A stretch of DNA of 64,000 nucleotides from an uncultured Candidatus Saccharibacteria bacterium. GTDB lineage: Bacteria > Patescibacteriota > Saccharimonadia > CAILAD01 > GCA-016700035. The stretch lies in contig CAZOVH010000002.1 of assembly GCA_964583675.1 (NCBI GenBank), positions 2,602 to 66,601 on the forward strand, in the 5' to 3' direction. The translations under genes were made by a program, and so were the position numbers. Shown in pieces: positions 19,321 through 26,465 of this stretch. Below the pieces are notes generated by a model, which searched no databases, was not told the DNA's origin, and worked only from the letters and a program-made list of their open reading frames with translations. Position 1 is the stretch's first letter. Each line of letters starts with the position of its first letter.

Positions 19321-19571
19321 ACCCCTTCCATATCACCATAAAGGATTTTGCGGCCGTCACTAAATATTCTATACAGCCGTGACTATGGAAGAGAGCGATC
19401 TGCTAACGCGGTTGAACCTAAAGGAGGGTGAGTTTTAGGATATGGCCCCGCAATTAGCAGATCGCTCGCTTCCAGAACAAAAGGTAAGTTGTTGCGGTAC
19501 GGATGTATACTATCACGTTATGATAATTTTGTCAATAGTATTTGTCAGAGGAATTTAAGTTTACAGAATAT

Positions 19572-20459
19572 ATGACAGATAATGCAAGCACTACTACTAT
19601 GCAAGTAATACAACTCTCTAGCAAGAATTATCCTGCTGATCTCAAAGCTATCTACAGCCCACCTAAAAAGCTCCACATATATGGAGCACTTCCAGTCCAG
19701 CCGATGGTGGCGATTGTTGGCTCCAGAAAACCCACTTCCTATGGAGAGATGGTGGCGTATCGGATAGCTTCAGACCTCGCAAAAGCAGGCGTGTGTATCG
19801 TGAGCGGCTTAGCCTACGGCATTGATAGTATCGTGCATCAGGCGGCGCTCGAAGCTGGCGGTACAACAATTGCGGTGCTCGGATCTGGTATAGACAAACT
19901 CTATCCTGCAGCCCATAAGCCTTTAGCGCGGCAAATAGTTCGGGCGGGCGGCGCGATCATCACCGAATATCCCAACGGAACCCCACCACTCAAACATCAT
20001 TTTCCGGCACGCAATCGTATTATTGCCGGATTATCAGCAGCTACCGTGGTGCCTGAAGCGGATGCAAAATCTGGCTCACTCATTACTGCTCAACTAGCGC
20101 TGGAAGAAAATCGCGTAGTTTGCGCTGTGCCTGGCCCGATTACCAGCGCACGTTCGGCTGGCCCAAATAATCTCCTGAAGGCTGGAGCTGTTGCCACAAC
20201 CTCGGCGGCCGATGTCTGCTCGCTCCTTGGCATCGATGCCGATACAGGCATGCAAAAACATCCTTCTACTACAGAACTGAGTCAATATGCCAAAGACATC
20301 CTCACAGCCCTCCAGTCTGGTGCTGCCACCACAGAAGATTTAGCGGCTTCTACCAAAATTGCCGTTCCAGCTCTCTTGAGTACACTCACACTACTCGAAA
20401 TGCAAAACTATGTACGTAGTTCAAGCGGCAATTCTTGGATGAGTACGATTGAAATTTGA
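19572..20459 (+). CDS. dprA: DNA processing protein DprA (Smf)
   Basis: Rossmann-like core GSRKPTSYGEMVAYRIASDLAKAGVCIVSGLAYGIDSIVHQAALEAGG; track start at 19542 is TTG, first ATG at 19572 preferred. Confidence 0.8.
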   Translation: MTDNASTTTMQVIQLSSKNYPADLKAIYSPPKKLHIYGALPVQPMVAIVGSRKPTSYGEMVAYRIASDLAKAGVCIVSGLAYGIDSIVHQAALEAGGTTIAVLGSGIDKLYPAAHKPLARQIVRAGGAIITEYPNGTPPLKHHFPARNRIIAGLSAATVVPEADAKSGSLITAQLALEENRVVCAVPGPITSARSAGPNNLLKAGAVATTSAADVCSLLGIDADTGMQKHPSTTELSQYAKDILTALQSGAATTEDLAASTKIAVPALLSTLTLLEMQNYVRSSSGNSWMSTIEI

Positions 20460-20520
20460 CAAGCCCAAGCTTCGCCCCGTACAATCGGCGAGCTACGTAC
20501 TACAAACGTAACTATTTTTT

Positions 20521-22503
20521 ATGGCCAAATCTTCAAGCAAAAAAACCGTCCTTATAGTAGAAAGCCCTGCAAAGGGTAAGACAATTGAGTCTTACCTCGG
20601 CAAGGGCTATAAAGTCGTGGCCAGCTACGGCCATGTCCGTGACCTGCCCAAATCTAAGCTTGGAATTGATGTAGAAAACGACTTTGAGCCACAATATATG
20701 GTTCCACGCGGCAGCGCATCTCGCATTAAAACGCTGAAGAACGCCACTAAGGATGCTGACACAATCTTACTCGCAACCGACCTTGACCGCGAAGGAGAAG
20801 CCATTGCTTGGCACTTAGCCGCTATCTTGGAGCCCACCGAAAAACAAGAGATGAAGCGCATTACGTTTTCCGAAATTACCAAACCCGCATTAGAAGACGC
20901 AGTGGCACATCCGCGCGACATCAATCAAAACCTTGTAGACGCCCAGCAGGCCAGGCGCGTACTCGATAGACTCGTAGGCTATTCACTCTCACCAGTACTC
21001 TGGAAAAAAGTCCGCTACGGACTCTCGGCAGGACGCGTACAGAGCGTAGCGCTTAAATTTATTACCGACCGTGAAAAAGAAATCGAAGCCTTTAAAACTG
21101 AAGAATATTGGAGTATTTCGGCTCAGTTCAAAGCTCAAAAAGGTGAATTCAGCGCCAACTTAATCAGCGTCGCCGGCGATAAGATCGCTCTAGACAACTC
21201 AAAAGATACTGAGGCAATCGTCACCAGTCTAAAAACCGACGACTACACCGTACTCGACGTAGAAAAGAAGCCTCTTCGACGTACGCCGCCAGCACCATTT
21301 ACTACCAGTACTCTCCAGCAAGATGCCTATCGCCGGCTTGGTTTTGGCGCTCGCCGTACCATGCGCGCTGCACAAAGCCTCTACGAAGCCGGTCTTATCT
21401 CTTATATGCGTACCGACTCGGTAACGCTTTCTGAGCAAGCCTTGGTAGCAATTTCTACCTACATCACAGGCGAGCTCGGTAAAGAGTACGGCCTCGCAAA
21501 GCCACGTGTACACAAAACTAAATCTCGGGGTGCACAGGAAGCACACGAAGCCATCCGCCCAACCAATCCCGAGCGCGCACCACATACCATTCAAGATATA
21601 GGTGGCGATGAGGCAAAACTGTATAACTTAATTTGGCAGCGCACATTAGCCTCCCAGATGGCAGTAGCTGAATTTGAGCAGACCAAAATCAATATTCAAG
21701 CCCAAAAAACTGATGCGCTACTACGTGCCAGTGGGCGAGTCCTCGTATTTGACGGTTTCACAAAGGTATACCCGCCACAGAGCAAGGAAGAAGCACCACT
21801 TTTGCCGGATGTCGCGGCCAAAGAAAATCTCACTCTTATTGATGTCGCCGGTGAACAACACTTTACTCAACCGCCAGCTCGCTATAGTGAAGCTACCCTG
21901 GTGAAAAAACTCGAAGAGGCCGGCATTGGTCGCCCAAGTACCTATGCGCCAACAATTGCCACTATCATTTCGCGTGGCTATGTATTAAACGAAGATAAGC
22001 GCCTAGTTCCACAGCCAGTAGGTATGGTTGTTTCTGATTTGCTCGCCGAAAACTTCGATTTTGTTACCGAGCCAGAATTTACGGCTGAGATGGAAGACAA
22101 GCTCGATGAAGTGGCTGCCGGAAAGCAAACCTGGAAGCCGGTTATCCGTGATTATTACGAACCAATGCATAAACTCATTGAAGAAAAAGAGCAATCCATT
22201 AAAAAAGTCGAATTGCCAGTTATTGAAACCGATGAGAAATGCGAATTATGTGGCAAGACAATGGTCATTAAATCTGGTCGTTTCGGTCAATTCCTAGCTT
22301 GTTCTGGATGGCCAGACTGTAAAAATGCCAAGCCTATCCTCAAGAAAACTGGCGTTGAATGCCCTCAGTGTAAGGAAGGGGAGGTAGTAGAACGTAAAAC
22401 GAAAAAAGGTCGTCGTTTCTGGGGCTGCTCTAGATACCCTGATTGCGACTACGCAACCTGGACGAAACCAAAAAATCCTGACGCCGAAGAGGCTAGTGAC
22501 TAG
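20521..22503 (+). CDS. topA: DNA topoisomerase I with C-terminal C4 zinc ribbons
   Basis: TOPRIM N-domain (LIVESPAKGKTI, DLDREGEAIAWH), catalytic Tyr region (SYMRTDS), C-terminal Cys4 pairs. Confidence 0.95.
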   Translation: MAKSSSKKTVLIVESPAKGKTIESYLGKGYKVVASYGHVRDLPKSKLGIDVENDFEPQYMVPRGSASRIKTLKNATKDADTILLATDLDREGEAIAWHLAAILEPTEKQEMKRITFSEITKPALEDAVAHPRDINQNLVDAQQARRVLDRLVGYSLSPVLWKKVRYGLSAGRVQSVALKFITDREKEIEAFKTEEYWSISAQFKAQKGEFSANLISVAGDKIALDNSKDTEAIVTSLKTDDYTVLDVEKKPLRRTPPAPFTTSTLQQDAYRRLGFGARRTMRAAQSLYEAGLISYMRTDSVTLSEQALVAISTYITGELGKEYGLAKPRVHKTKSRGAQEAHEAIRPTNPERAPHTIQDIGGDEAKLYNLIWQRTLASQMAVAEFEQTKINIQAQKTDALLRASGRVLVFDGFTKVYPPQSKEEAPLLPDVAAKENLTLIDVAGEQHFTQPPARYSEATLVKKLEEAGIGRPSTYAPTIATIISRGYVLNEDKRLVPQPVGMVVSDLLAENFDFVTEPEFTAEMEDKLDEVAAGKQTWKPVIRDYYEPMHKLIEEKEQSIKKVELPVIETDEKCELCGKTMVIKSGRFGQFLACSGWPDCKNAKPILKKTGVECPQCKEGEVVERKTKKGRRFWGCSRYPDCDYATWTKPKNPDAEEASD

Positions 22504-22557
22504 CCCTTCTTTAACACAAGCTTTTTGACGAATCTCCAAAAAAGTCCTCTAGTTTTA

Positions 22558-22586
22558 TTGACCTATCTAACTTGCGATGATATAAT
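22558..22586 (+). promoter_or_regulatory. consensus sigma-70 promoter (TTGACC -17 nt- TATAAT) driving 22631..23728
   Basis: Perfect -35/-10 hexamers with 17-nt spacer read directly; SD AAGAGGGTGAGG precedes ATG at 22631. Confidence 0.6.
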
Positions 22587-22630
22587 ATCTTCCAAGACCA
22601 ATACTTATAGGTTTAAAGAGGGTGAGGAAT

Positions 22631-23728
22631 ATGTCTACTCAAGCTATGACGAAAACTACTACTATTGATGTTCGCCCTCTCGTCGAATCGTTGATCGACG
22701 AGAGTTTGCGTGTACTCAAAAAAGATCGCGATCGCGAAGTTGTGGCCAAGCGCCACGGCCTTAAAACCTACCAACCCCACACTCTGGAGCAAATCGGTAG
22801 TGAGCTTGGCATTACCCGCGAACGCGTTCGCCAGATTGAAAAAGCTGCTTTTCAGAAGATTCGCGAACAAGGTCTCACTGAAAGCGAGCTCCACACCGCT
22901 ATGCTCGACTCAATTCAGGAGACCGGCGGTATCATCCAGCTTGACCGTCTTTTGAGTGCGCTCGAGCTTGATACTAACGAGCGCCCCAATGTCACTTACC
23001 TGGTGCGAATTATGCCGGACCTCGAACTAGTTGAGCAGAACGAAGAGCTGTCACCAGTCGTATCACTCGCTGATCCATACAGCCGCCAAACTGTTATCCA
23101 GCTCCACAGTCAGCTACACGATGCTACCAAGTCTCATGGCAAGCCTGTAAAGTTTGATAAAATCGCTGGCGCCATCGATGGACCACATGCTCGCACCGCG
23201 CTCGAAGAGCTGGCAGTTGCCTCGAAGCTCGTAACCGATCTTGATGGTCATTGGGGCTTGGCTGTGTGGCCAGAGGTAAACCCTCGCAGTATTCGCGATA
23301 AAACCTATCTGGTACTCAAAAAAGCTGGTCGGCCAATGCACTTCACTGAAATTGCCGATAAAATCTCTAAACTCGATGCCAACCCAAAGCAGGTAACCAC
23401 TCAAGCTGTCCACAACGAGCTTATTAAAGACGCCCGTTTTGTGCTGATTGGCCGCGGTATTTACGCTCTCGCCGAATGGGGTTACCAGGCCGGAACTGTT
23501 TCAGATATTATTGAGCAAATCTTGCGTGAAGAAAGCCCACTCACACGTGAAGAAATTATTAAGCGCGTATTAGCTCGTCGTCAGGTAAAAGTTGCCACAA
23601 TTGCCTTAAACCTCCAGGAAAAGCCGCAGTTTGAACGCGTAGGCAAGGGCCTCTATAAGCTGCAGGATGGCTATGTTGCTGAACCACGCAAACGTCGCGG
23701 TCGACCACGCAACAACGCTACTGCGTAA
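22631..23728 (+). CDS. DNA-binding protein: N-terminal sigma-70 region-4-like HTH followed by three HARE-HTH-like winged-helix repeats and a C-terminal AT-hook
   Basis: LEQIGSELGITRERVRQIEKAAFQKIR matches sigma-70 region 4.2; repeats ending GHWGLAVW, GRGIYALAEWGY, GKGLYKL resemble RNAP delta/HARE-HTH; tail RKRRGRPRNN. Confidence 0.55.
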   Translation: MSTQAMTKTTTIDVRPLVESLIDESLRVLKKDRDREVVAKRHGLKTYQPHTLEQIGSELGITRERVRQIEKAAFQKIREQGLTESELHTAMLDSIQETGGIIQLDRLLSALELDTNERPNVTYLVRIMPDLELVEQNEELSPVVSLADPYSRQTVIQLHSQLHDATKSHGKPVKFDKIAGAIDGPHARTALEELAVASKLVTDLDGHWGLAVWPEVNPRSIRDKTYLVLKKAGRPMHFTEIADKISKLDANPKQVTTQAVHNELIKDARFVLIGRGIYALAEWGYQAGTVSDIIEQILREESPLTREEIIKRVLARRQVKVATIALNLQEKPQFERVGKGLYKLQDGYVAEPRKRRGRPRNNATA

Positions 23729-23792: not shown

Positions 23793-26465
23793 ATGGAAGC
23801 ATTATTTTCAGTAATTGGCGCCGTTTTTTCGATAATCGGCATAGCATTGTTTCAGTACTGGGGCTGGACGCTTATTGCTGCATATCTCATTTGGCAAATC
23901 TGGCAAAATAAGCGCAAAGTCGCCTATGTAGAGACTACTGAGCACACTATGCTCCAGATTATCGTACCGAAAAATAACGATAAAAAAGAACTTTCCGCCG
24001 AGCAACTTTTTGCCAGTCTTCATGGTATCTTACGGCCAAAATCGGAGATTGAAAAAGAAGGCTCAATTCAAGAACACATTAGTTTTGAGATTGTCTCTGA
24101 GCAGAATGTTATCAATTTTTATGTATGGGTACCGGTCCATCTTAAGGACTACGTCGAAAGCCAAGTGTACGCTCAGTACCCGACAGTCCAAATCTTGGCC
24201 GATGCCGAAGACTACGCCAAGCGAGATATTGGCGATCAGCTGAGCGTTATTGGCGAAATCACCACCACCAAAGACTTTATTTTTCCGATTAAGACCTTCA
24301 CCACGTTCGAAGTCGACCCGCTAGCCGGCATAACAACCGTTCTTGCCACCCTAAACCCAAATGAACAAATCTGGGTTCAGTACCTCATGCGCCCGGTTGA
24401 CGACTCCTGGCACGCCCGCAGTCTCTCGTATGTCTCAGAGCTGAAAAACGGCAAGAAGAAGGGGCTCCTCGACGGCTGGGAACAAAAACTCTTCTTGCTT
24501 CCGCTGGAAGCCATCCTATACTTCATTCAGGCTCTGGTTAATCCTCCGCAACCAAAAGAAAAGAAGGACGAACCAAAAAAGGAGCTGTCGCCAGGGCAAA
24601 CGACTGTCGCTTCGGCTATCGAGACCAAAGCTGAAAAAATTGGCTACGAAGTAAAAATTCGCGTTGCCTATGTAGGTGACTCTGCAGACCTCGCCAAGCA
24701 ACGCATGCAGGCACTCTATGGTGGCTTCAAGCAATTCAACACTATTAACCTGAATGGTTTAAACGGCGGGGGATACGACACTACTCCTGAAGGCCTTCAA
24801 GAATATCGTGCGCGCTACTTTGAGGGCGGCGGTTTTATCTTAAATGTAGAAGAACTCGCCAGCCTGTATCACTTGCCACATACCAGTGTTGAAACGCCTA
24901 ATATTGCCTGGACCACTACCAAAGTAGGGGAGCCGCCAACCAACCTCCCAACCCTGGCAAATACACCGCAAGAGGCGCTCTCACTCATCGGCACTACCAC
25001 ATTTAGACAAACTAACGTAAAGTTTGGCATTAAACGTGACGACCGCAAGCGCCACCTCTACGTTATTGGTAAATCCGGCTCTGGTAAAAGTTTTGCGCTC
25101 CTCCTTTTAACGCTATCAGACATCTACCATAATCAGGGCTTTGCTATTGTAGACCCTCACGGTGACTTCGCTCAGGATGCGCTGAAATATATTCCAGCGC
25201 ACCGCCACCAGGATGTAGTCTACTTCAACCCGTCTGACTTCGAGAACCCGATTGCTTTCAATCCAATGGAGAACGCCGACCCAAACATGCGCGCCTCAAT
25301 TGCCTCAGAAATTATTGGCGTATTAAAAAAGATGTTTGCCGAGTCCTGGGGCCCTCGCTTAGAACATATTTTACGTTTTACGCTACTAGCACTCCTTGAG
25401 ACACCAGATGCCAACCTGATGGGCATTACTAGAATGCTCACAGATAAAAACTTCCGTAAGAAAGTCGTTGATCAGCTCACCGACGTCACCGTAAAATCCT
25501 TCTGGGTAAATGAATTTGCAAGCTGGAATGACAAGTTTGCCACCGAAGCTGTGGCGCCAATTCTCAATAAGGTAGGGGCTTTTACGGCCAACCCGTTGGT
25601 ACGAAACGTAATTGGGCAAAAGCAATCTAGCTTCGATATCCGCCAAATTATGGACGAAGGGAAGATTCTTATTTGCGACCTCTCACGCGGTCGACTCGGA
25701 GAAGATAACGCCGCCACGCTTGGAGCTCTTTTGATTACTAAAATCCAGCTAGCTGCAATGAGTCGTGCTAATATACCCCTCGATCAACGTCGTCCATTCT
25801 ACCTATACGTCGACGAATTCCAAAACTTTGCTACCGACTCATTTGCCGTAATTCTCTCCGAAGCCCGTAAGTATGGACTCTACCTCACCGTTGCCAACCA
25901 ATACGTAGCCCAGATGCAACAAGAAGTACGTGATGCTGTCTTTGGTAACGTCGGCTCTATGATTACCTTTAGGGTAGGGGCGGACGATGCCACTGCACTT
26001 GCGCGCTACTTTGAGCCAATTTTTGAGCCAAATGACCTCACTAATTTGTCTCTCCAAAACATTTACGTCACCATGTCCATTGATGGGGAAACAAGCATAC
26101 CATTCTCTGCTAAGACCCTCCGTGTACCGGATCCAGAAGCTGATAATGCTCGAACTATCATTGAGCTCTCTAGAAAGCGCTTTAACAGCAACAGGGAAGA
26201 GGTGGAGCAAGTAATCGCCGAATGGAATAACATGGCTGAAAAACCAGAAGATAAGCAGGGAAGACACTCAACTGAAAACATCCCGACACCCGGGGAAGCC
26301 AGCCCCCAGGCAGCTCACGTACAAAACCGCCCTACTCCTGCGGTGGCTGGAGCGCAGCCCAAGAACTACTCCGAGTTGATGCGCCAGAACTCTTCAGGTC
26401 AAAAAACCCATAGTGACCGCAAGCCGTCCGGATCGAATTCGAATCGCAAACGTAAACGTCGTTAA
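23793..26465 (+). CDS. TraD/TraG/VirD4-like type IV coupling-protein-family P-loop ATPase (membrane-anchored) with basic C-terminal tail
   Basis: Two N-terminal TM helices, Walker A VIGKSGSGKS followed by IVDPHGD (cf. T4CP DPKGE), Walker B LYVDEFQNF; tail ...SNSNRKRKRR. Confidence 0.55.
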   Translation: MEALFSVIGAVFSIIGIALFQYWGWTLIAAYLIWQIWQNKRKVAYVETTEHTMLQIIVPKNNDKKELSAEQLFASLHGILRPKSEIEKEGSIQEHISFEIVSEQNVINFYVWVPVHLKDYVESQVYAQYPTVQILADAEDYAKRDIGDQLSVIGEITTTKDFIFPIKTFTTFEVDPLAGITTVLATLNPNEQIWVQYLMRPVDDSWHARSLSYVSELKNGKKKGLLDGWEQKLFLLPLEAILYFIQALVNPPQPKEKKDEPKKELSPGQTTVASAIETKAEKIGYEVKIRVAYVGDSADLAKQRMQALYGGFKQFNTINLNGLNGGGYDTTPEGLQEYRARYFEGGGFILNVEELASLYHLPHTSVETPNIAWTTTKVGEPPTNLPTLANTPQEALSLIGTTTFRQTNVKFGIKRDDRKRHLYVIGKSGSGKSFALLLLTLSDIYHNQGFAIVDPHGDFAQDALKYIPAHRHQDVVYFNPSDFENPIAFNPMENADPNMRASIASEIIGVLKKMFAESWGPRLEHILRFTLLALLETPDANLMGITRMLTDKNFRKKVVDQLTDVTVKSFWVNEFASWNDKFATEAVAPILNKVGAFTANPLVRNVIGQKQSSFDIRQIMDEGKILICDLSRGRLGEDNAATLGALLITKIQLAAMSRANIPLDQRRPFYLYVDEFQNFATDSFAVILSEARKYGLYLTVANQYVAQMQQEVRDAVFGNVGSMITFRVGADDATALARYFEPIFEPNDLTNLSLQNIYVTMSIDGETSIPFSAKTLRVPDPEADNARTIIELSRKRFNSNREEVEQVIAEWNNMAEKPEDKQGRHSTENIPTPGEASPQAAHVQNRPTPAVAGAQPKNYSELMRQNSSGQKTHSDRKPSGSNSNRKRKRR

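Follow-up and report, generated by a model that had tools for sequence, protein, structure and literature searches.

Patescibacteria, the bacteria of the candidate phyla radiation (CPR), account for a large share of bacterial diversity and have tiny genomes with very few recognizable regulators. Here we describe a gene from this group whose product joins a free-standing region 4 of sigma-70 (sigma-4) to four winged helices of the HARE type, a protein referred to below as sigma-4/HARE. The gene lies on contig CAZOVH010000002.1 of assembly GCA_964583675.1, from an uncultured Candidatus Saccharibacteria bacterium, within a stretch of 64,000 nucleotides (positions 2,602 to 66,601 of the forward strand) that was analyzed as a whole and is called the window; coordinates are counted from its first letter. 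The open reading frame (ORF) runs from 22622 to 23728 on the plus strand, and the probable start is the ATG at 22631, which is preceded by AAAGAGGGTGAGG and opens the protein with MSTQ, as in close homologs. From this start the coding sequence (22631-23728) specifies 365 amino acids. A Shine-Dalgarno region, AAGAGGGTGAGG, was read directly from the sequence at 22617-22627, and a sigma-70-type promoter lies farther upstream (22558-22586). The gene topA (20521-22503) comes before it, with dprA (19542-20459) ahead of topA, and a gene for an 890-residue membrane ATPase (23793-26465) follows after a gap of 64 bp, all on the plus strand. Neither rpoB nor rpoC lies in the window.

The N-terminal domain occupies residues 14-82 (22670-22876). 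The Pfam model Sigma70_r4 matches its core, residues 32-79, with E=6.6e-15 and 54.8 bits against a cutoff of 24.1, and the recognition helix reads TRERVRQIE (residues 62-70). Nothing else in the protein is sigma-like. Matches to sigma factors among NCBIfam models and PDB sequences are confined to the C-terminal ~60 residues of RpoS, RpoD and SigA, and searches with Pfam and NCBIfam models found regions 1.2, 2 and 3 neither in this protein nor in any family member examined. This is no remnant of a longer sigma gene: region 4 has only about 14 residues ahead of it, and the preceding gene is topA. The preliminary description of this stretch, made from the letters alone, had read the N-terminus as a sigma-70 region 4 without regions 2 and 3, and the Pfam searches agree. 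The closest counterparts are region 4 domains of group 1 and group 2 sigma factors (RpoD, SigA and RpoS; PF04545), which have the same fold and are ~40-48% identical over ~60 residues. The recognition helix TRERVRQIE is identical to that of an RpoS chain from the PDB, and the protein keeps the −35-contacting residues. The arrangement differs from that of a sigma factor, however, because here region 4 is N-terminal, stands alone, lacks the C-terminal helix that follows region 4.2, and is succeeded by four winged helices. PDB 1KU7 was among the structural matches from Foldseek, which also returned long alignments to chimeras of sigma-4 with the flap tip; these alignments hint that the helix after sigma-4 may lie in the groove that binds the beta flap.

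The rest of the protein belongs to the HARE helix-turn-helix (HARE-HTH) superfamily. Searched with the whole protein, the Pfam model HARE-HTH (PF05066) gave E=6.1e-12 and 46.2 bits, well above its gathering score of 25.9; by segment, residues 214-288 scored E=3.5e-8 (34.2 bits) and residues 286-348 scored E=4.4e-4. An AlphaFold2 model built from 28 homologs (mean predicted local distance difference test score, pLDDT, 82.9) places a four-helix sigma-4 domain at residues 15-80, followed by winged-helix-type units at residues 86-146, 152-210, 221-280 and 290-344. Drawing on the secondary structure of this model, profile comparison and charge, we delimit a divergent HARE-like copy with a net charge of −11 (WH1, residues 84-149, 22880-23077), a second HARE-like copy that ends in GHWGLAVWPE (WH2, residues 150-215, 23078-23275), a basic domain that is the best-conserved part of the family and carries the pattern VHNELIKDxRFVLIGRGIYALxEWGY (HARE1, residues 216-286, 23276-23488), and a last domain that is basic throughout the family (HARE2, residues 287-346, 23489-23668). 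The HARE2 segment also matches DUF3320 (E=4.1e-5), and a TFIIE_beta match is weak and below cutoff (E=0.0033).

Homology among the four segments was assessed by profile-profile comparison with hhalign, using family sub-alignments. The probabilities were 97.8% for HARE1-HARE2, 97.1% for WH2-HARE1, 94.9% for WH2-HARE2, 93.7% for WH1-HARE2, 79.8% for WH1-WH2 and 78.8% for WH1-HARE1, and none of the four segments resembled sigma-4 in the hhalign comparisons. Judged by these profiles, the four winged helices are mutually homologous and of HARE type. The preliminary description had likened this part to the HARE-HTH of the delta subunit of RNA polymerase (RNAP), a likeness that the Pfam match upholds; it had counted three repeats by their terminal motifs, and those motifs are in place (GHWGL at residues 206-210, GRGIYAL at 274-280 and GKGLYKL at 338-344), but the count missed the fourth copy at residues 84-149. 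The two outcomes it had named as counting against it, an ordinary full-length sigma factor and an absence of HARE-HTH similarity, did not occur in the domain searches.

Delta (RpoE) of Bacillota, represented by TIGR04567 and by the Staphylococcus aureus subunit in PDB 8x6g (chain E), shares with this protein the HARE-HTH and its hairpin signature ...DxRF...G..W.L..W. Delta has one HARE domain and a long acidic disordered tail, and it is dispensable in Bacillus. The sigma-4/HARE protein differs from it in having four HARE-like domains, a sigma-4 domain, a basic C-terminal end and an ortholog that is essential. Other HARE-HTH proteins (ASXL, HB1 and restriction endonuclease fusions; PF05066) contain a homologous domain that is thought to bind DNA in those settings, where its partners are instead deubiquitinase regulators and nucleases. 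The nearest tandem winged-helix arrays by Foldseek (RPC62/Rpc82, TFIIE, SelB and Dcc1) align with template modeling (TM) scores of 0.16-0.23 and 9-14% identity, which is generic fold similarity only. In the literature searched, we found no description of a sigma-4 and HARE-HTH architecture or of tandem HARE arrays fused to sigma-4.

The protein ends in a basic tail, RKRRGRPR (residues 353-360, 23687-23710), which contains the RGRP core of an AT-hook between basic flanks and may bind the minor groove; Pfam reported no AT_hook match for the protein. The RGRP tail is present in 18 of 120 close homologs and in none of 90 representatives at 50% identity, most of which stop directly after the last winged helix. 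The AT-hook noted in the preliminary description is thus present as a core motif and is specific to this clade, not a defining feature of the family.

The family is large. A word-indexed search returned at least 8000 clusters at 90% identity, each ~340-390 residues long and with the same pair of Pfam domains, under source names such as "hypothetical protein", "sigma factor-like helix-turn-helix DNA-binding protein" and "DNA-directed RNA polymerase delta subunit". In an exhaustive HMMER scan of 1.84 billion representatives, E<=1e-30 was reached by 597 clusters at 50% identity. The similarity is collinear from end to end in nearly all of them, and the shared layout is sigma-4, four winged helices and a size of ~330-390 residues. 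Among the GTDB species-genome matches listed, those of full length come from Saccharibacteria, Nanosynbacter, Peregrinibacteria, Doudnabacteria, Parcubacteria, Kaiserbacteria and genomes labeled "Patescibacteria group", and the matches listed from non-CPR genomes cover only the sigma-4 motif of ordinary sigma factors. The family, with its conserved gene context, appears restricted to CPR genomes, which agrees with the "Patescibacteria-enriched" flag given to an ortholog in PMC10633639. A phage origin was considered and rejected, as only one relative turned up in 2.9 million viral contigs. Taken together, the family is catalogued but functionally uncharacterized, and the window gene is an ordinary member. 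Two family members depart from the usual layout. One protein of 659 residues (P0218) has a SecF-like membrane region fused ahead of sigma-4/HARE; secF is the upstream neighbor in Parcubacteria, and the fusion may be a gene-call or read-through artifact. Another, of 479 residues (P0244), is built of repeated HARE-like units and shows no recognizable sigma-4.

Conservation was examined in an alignment of 143 representatives at 50% identity mapped to Escherichia coli sigma-70 numbering, and this mapping is consistent with the alignment to RpoS from the PDB. The equivalents of R584, E585, R586, R588 and Q589, the recognition-helix residues of sigma-70 that contact the −35 hexamer, are each present in 142 of the 143. 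The L573 equivalent is invariant (143/143), R562 is kept in 141, and R554 is an Arg or Lys in 137, so region 4 retains a helix-turn-helix with the residues that read the −35 element. Along the protein, conservation peaks in the sigma-4 recognition helix (residues 61-70, 0.89) and in helix 3 and the beta-wing of HARE1 (residues 261-290, 0.73-0.89); WH1 and WH2 are poorly conserved (0.2-0.4). The recognition helix of sigma-4 and helix 3 with the wing of winged-helix domains are the canonical DNA-contacting elements of these folds. Charge follows a comparable division, with family mean net charges of +4.8 for sigma-4, +5.4 for HARE1 and +4.6 for HARE2 versus −1.3 for WH1 and −0.4 for WH2.

An ortholog is found in Southlakia epibionticum ML1, the subject of the only CPR data set from transposon insertion sequencing (Tn-seq). 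The supplementary tables of Wang et al. (Cell, 2023; PMC10633639) list it as SEML1_0294, a protein of 349 residues that PROKKA names "RNA polymerase sigma factor RpoS" and that the paper itself does not discuss. Its Pfam domains are PF04545 (residues 27-72) and PF05066 (residues 225-283); DPAM assigns one "tri-helical" and three "winged" domains, with residues 6-155 grouped into one domain, a second hint that the helix after sigma-4 may lie in the beta-flap-binding groove. Its context, dprA - topA - x - T4SS-DNA-binding-protein, is that of the window. Tables S1 and S2 of that study place SEML1_0294 in a core, Patescibacteria-enriched family and score it ES at all three time points, with insertions falling from 24 in the input DNA to 1, 1 and 2 after selection; among genes enriched in Patescibacteria, it is one of those found essential. 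The next gene downstream, the VirD4-like SEML1_0293, is scored NE at all three, with insertions going from 82 in the input to 87, 120 and 110. The same annotation gives S. epibionticum one complete sigma factor, an essential RpoD with regions 1.2, 2, 3 and 4, along with a normal RpoA that has its C-terminal domain. Because RpoD keeps its own region 4, the sigma-4/HARE protein is an addition and not a replacement. PF04545 occurs three times in Table S2 of PMC10633639; two of these are RpoD and SEML1_0294, and a third region-4 protein in that genome is possible.

The promoter in front of the window gene consists of a −35 hexamer TTGACC (22558-22563) and a −10 hexamer TATAAT (22581-22586) separated by a 17-bp spacer, with a TG at 22578-22579. 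It matches 11 of the 12 consensus positions, so the preliminary description had the hexamers and spacing right in calling it TTGACC-17-TATAAT but overstated it as perfect. Sites with at least 11/12 matches number 3 on both strands of the 64 kb, compared with 1.1 ± 1.0 in shuffles, an excess over chance. Across 75 nonidentical orthologous loci, a promoter of at least 11/12 lies ahead of the gene in 60, with a spacer that is nearly always 17 bp and often with all 12 matches. By this comparison of upstream regions, selection for strong transcription of the sigma-4/HARE gene is conserved, and a near-consensus promoter kept in this way suggests high expression. A TTGAC(G) at 22524-22529 on the plus strand, 33-34 bp upstream of the −35 hexamer, was considered as an autoregulatory site and discarded, as an extra TTGAC or GTCAA occurs within 70 nt upstream in only 3 of the 75 loci. 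Many Saccharibacteria orthologs (loci L087-L164, for example L098, L103 and L151) carry a promoter-like element ~20-45 nt upstream of the −35 hexamer, made of a TTTACC-like hexamer, a spacing of ~17 nt and an extended −10 element, tGTGCTAtAAT. This element, which is absent from the window, suggests conserved tandem promoters in those orthologs.

Downstream of the sigma-4/HARE gene, the 890-residue product of 23793-26465 fuses a DUF8128-like membrane domain (residues 1-390) to an ATPase domain of the TrwB/VirD4/HerA type (residues 393-850), and no terminator-like site was seen in the 64-bp gap between the two genes. In a PADLOC search, only the P-loop region of this neighbor matched (HerA/mad8). 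The dprA-topA context upstream is specific to Saccharibacteria. In Doudnabacteria, Parcubacteria and other CPR lineages, the genes upstream are secD-secF or leuS instead of topA, and the DUF8128 protein and the ATPase are encoded by two consecutive genes after the sigma-4/HARE gene. Where they are separate, the DUF8128-like protein has ~415-550 residues and the ATPase ~575-630 (L012 5067-8399, L014 4210-7277 and L015 5062-8160); in Saccharibacteria the fusion forms one ORF of 880-1010 amino acids. The Parcubacteria-type ATPases of L014 and L015 end in a treble-clef zinc finger (zf_Tbcl_2), and the window protein in a disordered tail that finishes with KRKRR. At the species level in GTDB, 12 of 15 loci, drawn from Saccharibacteria, Doudnabacteria, Parcubacteria and Kaiserbacteria, have a DUF8128 homolog as the next gene downstream in the same orientation. 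Of the metagenomic loci, 66 extend far enough downstream to be scored: 38 have the DUF8128 homolog, with the ATPase as well in 35 of these 38, and 27 lack the DUF8128 homolog. The linkage is real but facultative. The neighbor-less loci examined (L087 and L149) have topA upstream, with dprA as well in L087, and murG farther downstream.

Arrangements of this kind have parallels. Accessory proteins of type IV coupling proteins (TraM and TrwA) and the gamma domain of FtsK are DNA-binding modules that sit beside, or are fused to, a membrane ATPase of the FtsK/HerA superfamily, as the sigma-4/HARE protein does here with its predicted DNA binding. Their folds, ribbon-helix-helix or a single winged helix, are unrelated to the present one, and the relationship of the partners differs too, since in S. 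epibionticum the ATPase is dispensable and the predicted DNA-binding protein is essential. The idea that the sigma-4/HARE protein substitutes for FtsK gamma is weakened by the canonical, essential FtsK with a gamma domain in S. epibionticum (PMC10633639). A 2025 survey of 2,918 Patescibacteria genomes (PMC12102498) counted 5,713 VirD4-like genes and found virB4 nearby for only 148 of them; its authors suggest exaptation.

How might such a protein work? We tentatively favor a DNA-binding factor that is abundant, reads hexamers of the −35 kind and has a global action on promoters or on the nucleoid, a proposal that we hold at somewhat less than even confidence. Isolated region 4 of sigma binds −35 DNA by itself. 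The sigma-4 domain would dock on −35-like TTGACA hexamers through the same residues that the housekeeping sigma uses, and HARE1 and HARE2, both basic and highly conserved, would bind adjacent DNA. In the present lineage, the RGRP AT-hook could add contacts in AT-rich minor grooves, and WH1 and WH2 may serve as spacers or as modules for protein contact. Acting in this way at many promoters or promoter-like sites, the protein would serve transcription or the nucleoid on a global scale, and this would explain why it is essential. We infer DNA binding, the −35-like target, abundance and the global role; the conserved strong promoters, the essential ortholog and the presence of the family across the CPR argue for an abundant global factor over a local regulator. 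The preliminary description had suggested that the protein could be associated with RNAP or with the nucleoid and that its architecture is unusual, a conjecture compatible with everything found.

Several considerations weigh against the proposal of a global −35-reading factor. The TRERVRQIE helix could be kept for reasons besides reading TTGACA. In delta, the HARE-HTH binds RNAP and not DNA, and by analogy the HARE domains of the sigma-4/HARE protein might bind RNAP as well. The conserved adjacency to the VirD4-like ATPase may point to another role, or to a further one. A competitor of sigma-A at every −35 hexamer would need a mechanism to avoid poisoning transcription. The window itself offers little leverage on a motif beyond the −35 and −10 hexamers, as only 4 promoters of at least 10/12 lie upstream of its listed ORFs, too few for inference.

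The protein might instead be an accessory subunit of RNAP akin to delta, in which one or more HARE domains would dock on beta-prime, like the N-terminal domain of delta in Bacillota, and sigma-4 on the beta flap tip. It would then modulate initiation or recycling from within the enzyme and not as a free DNA-binding protein. We regard this as unlikely. The delta equivalog TIGR04567 (RNAP_delt_lowGC) reaches only 33.1 bits against a cutoff of 42 and aligns to residues 223-283 alone; the architecture of delta, a single N-terminal HARE domain with a long acidic tail, is replaced by four HARE-like domains behind sigma-4, the C-terminal ones basic, and a tail that is absent or basic. Moreover, the flap tip is occupied at initiation by region 4 of RpoD, which RpoD retains, and the invariant residues of the family are the DNA-reading ones. 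A role tied to the neighboring ATPase, as a DNA-recognition adaptor or dedicated regulator that selects DNA for the DUF8128/VirD4-TrwB-like motor or delivers it there, strikes us as quite unlikely, somewhat more so than a delta-like subunit. It draws on the persistence of the DUF8128 homolog in the GTDB loci despite differing upstream genes (topA, secDF or leuS), on its recurrence with the ATPase in the metagenomic loci, on the fusion of the partner genes in Saccharibacteria, on the short gap free of a terminator-like site in the window, and on the finding that most Patescibacteria VirD4-like genes are not near virB4 (PMC12102498). However, the sigma-4/HARE gene is kept without the neighbor at 27 of 66 metagenomic and 3 of 15 GTDB loci, S. 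epibionticum has its canonical FtsK with gamma domain, and, because SEML1_0293 is dispensable and SEML1_0294 essential, what makes the latter essential cannot depend on the ATPase. The two may yet be linked in a regulatory or accessory way.

A sigma role is easily suggested by the intact sigma-4, whose nearest relatives are the group 1 and group 2 sigmas, and by annotation pipelines that name the ortholog RpoS. The protein could then be an alternative sigma or RpoS, or the region 4 half of a two-subunit sigma of the kind formed by SigO and RsoA in Bacillus, and we consider either of these scarcely credible. With regions 2 and 3 absent, and with them the binding of core RNAP and the melting of the −10 element, the protein is not a sigma factor, and region 1.2 is likewise missing throughout the members examined. 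Equivalog scores are far from their cutoffs (53.7 bits versus 394 for RpoS and 49.6 versus 354 for RpoD_Cterm). As for a split sigma, RpoD is the sole protein annotated with Sigma70_r2 (PF04542) in S. epibionticum (PMC10633639), and no orphan region-2 protein is evident there to act as a partner. A component of anti-phage defense was also considered and set aside: in PADLOC, only the sigma-4 part matches, to MzaA (E=1.8e-7), and the gene is core and essential in S. epibionticum. A bolder variant of the promoter-centered reading would make the protein an unrecognized basal factor of the CPR, an essential and stoichiometric partner of RNAP that supplies a second, trans-acting −35 head, with the HARE domains anchoring it on the enzyme or on promoter DNA. 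This is distinctly improbable in our estimate; if true, promoter recognition in the CPR would be shared by sigma-A and the sigma-4/HARE protein, a division of labor that is not known from other bacteria.

Whichever of these readings is closest, the family deserves a corrected annotation. Pipelines mislabel it as RpoS or as the delta subunit, and it is neither a sigma factor nor delta. A free-standing sigma-4 with four delta-type winged helices provides a testable entry to promoter recognition or nucleoid organization in the CPR, and it raises the question of whether these bacteria have a factor for promoters or the nucleoid that other bacteria lack. An orphan VirD4-like ATPase, recurrently encoded next to it, offers a second testable connection.

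Some further observations concern promoter-like sequences elsewhere in the window. The hexamer TTGACA is scarce, with 19 occurrences on both strands compared with 35.6 ± 6.1 in dinucleotide-preserving shuffles, all 100 of which had at least 19. This scarcity would fit with selection that removes spurious −35-like sites, for sigma-A or for the sigma-4/HARE protein. Several of the TTGACA occurrences stand a short way ahead of gene starts. A single promoter in the window is perfect at 12/12 (TTGACA-17-TATAAT, 2257-2229 on the minus strand), and it is aimed at a minus-strand ORF of 108 residues, 2158-1832, that begins MSTQTSMAPGNRNATMLDLG; no tRNA or Rfam match was found in the region of this ORF, and an overlapping plus-strand ORF of 272 residues (1883-2701) is probably spurious. 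The topA gene has a promoter of its own at 20456-20484 on the plus strand (TTGACA-18-TACAAT, 11/12), the −35 hexamer of which overlaps the last codons of dprA.

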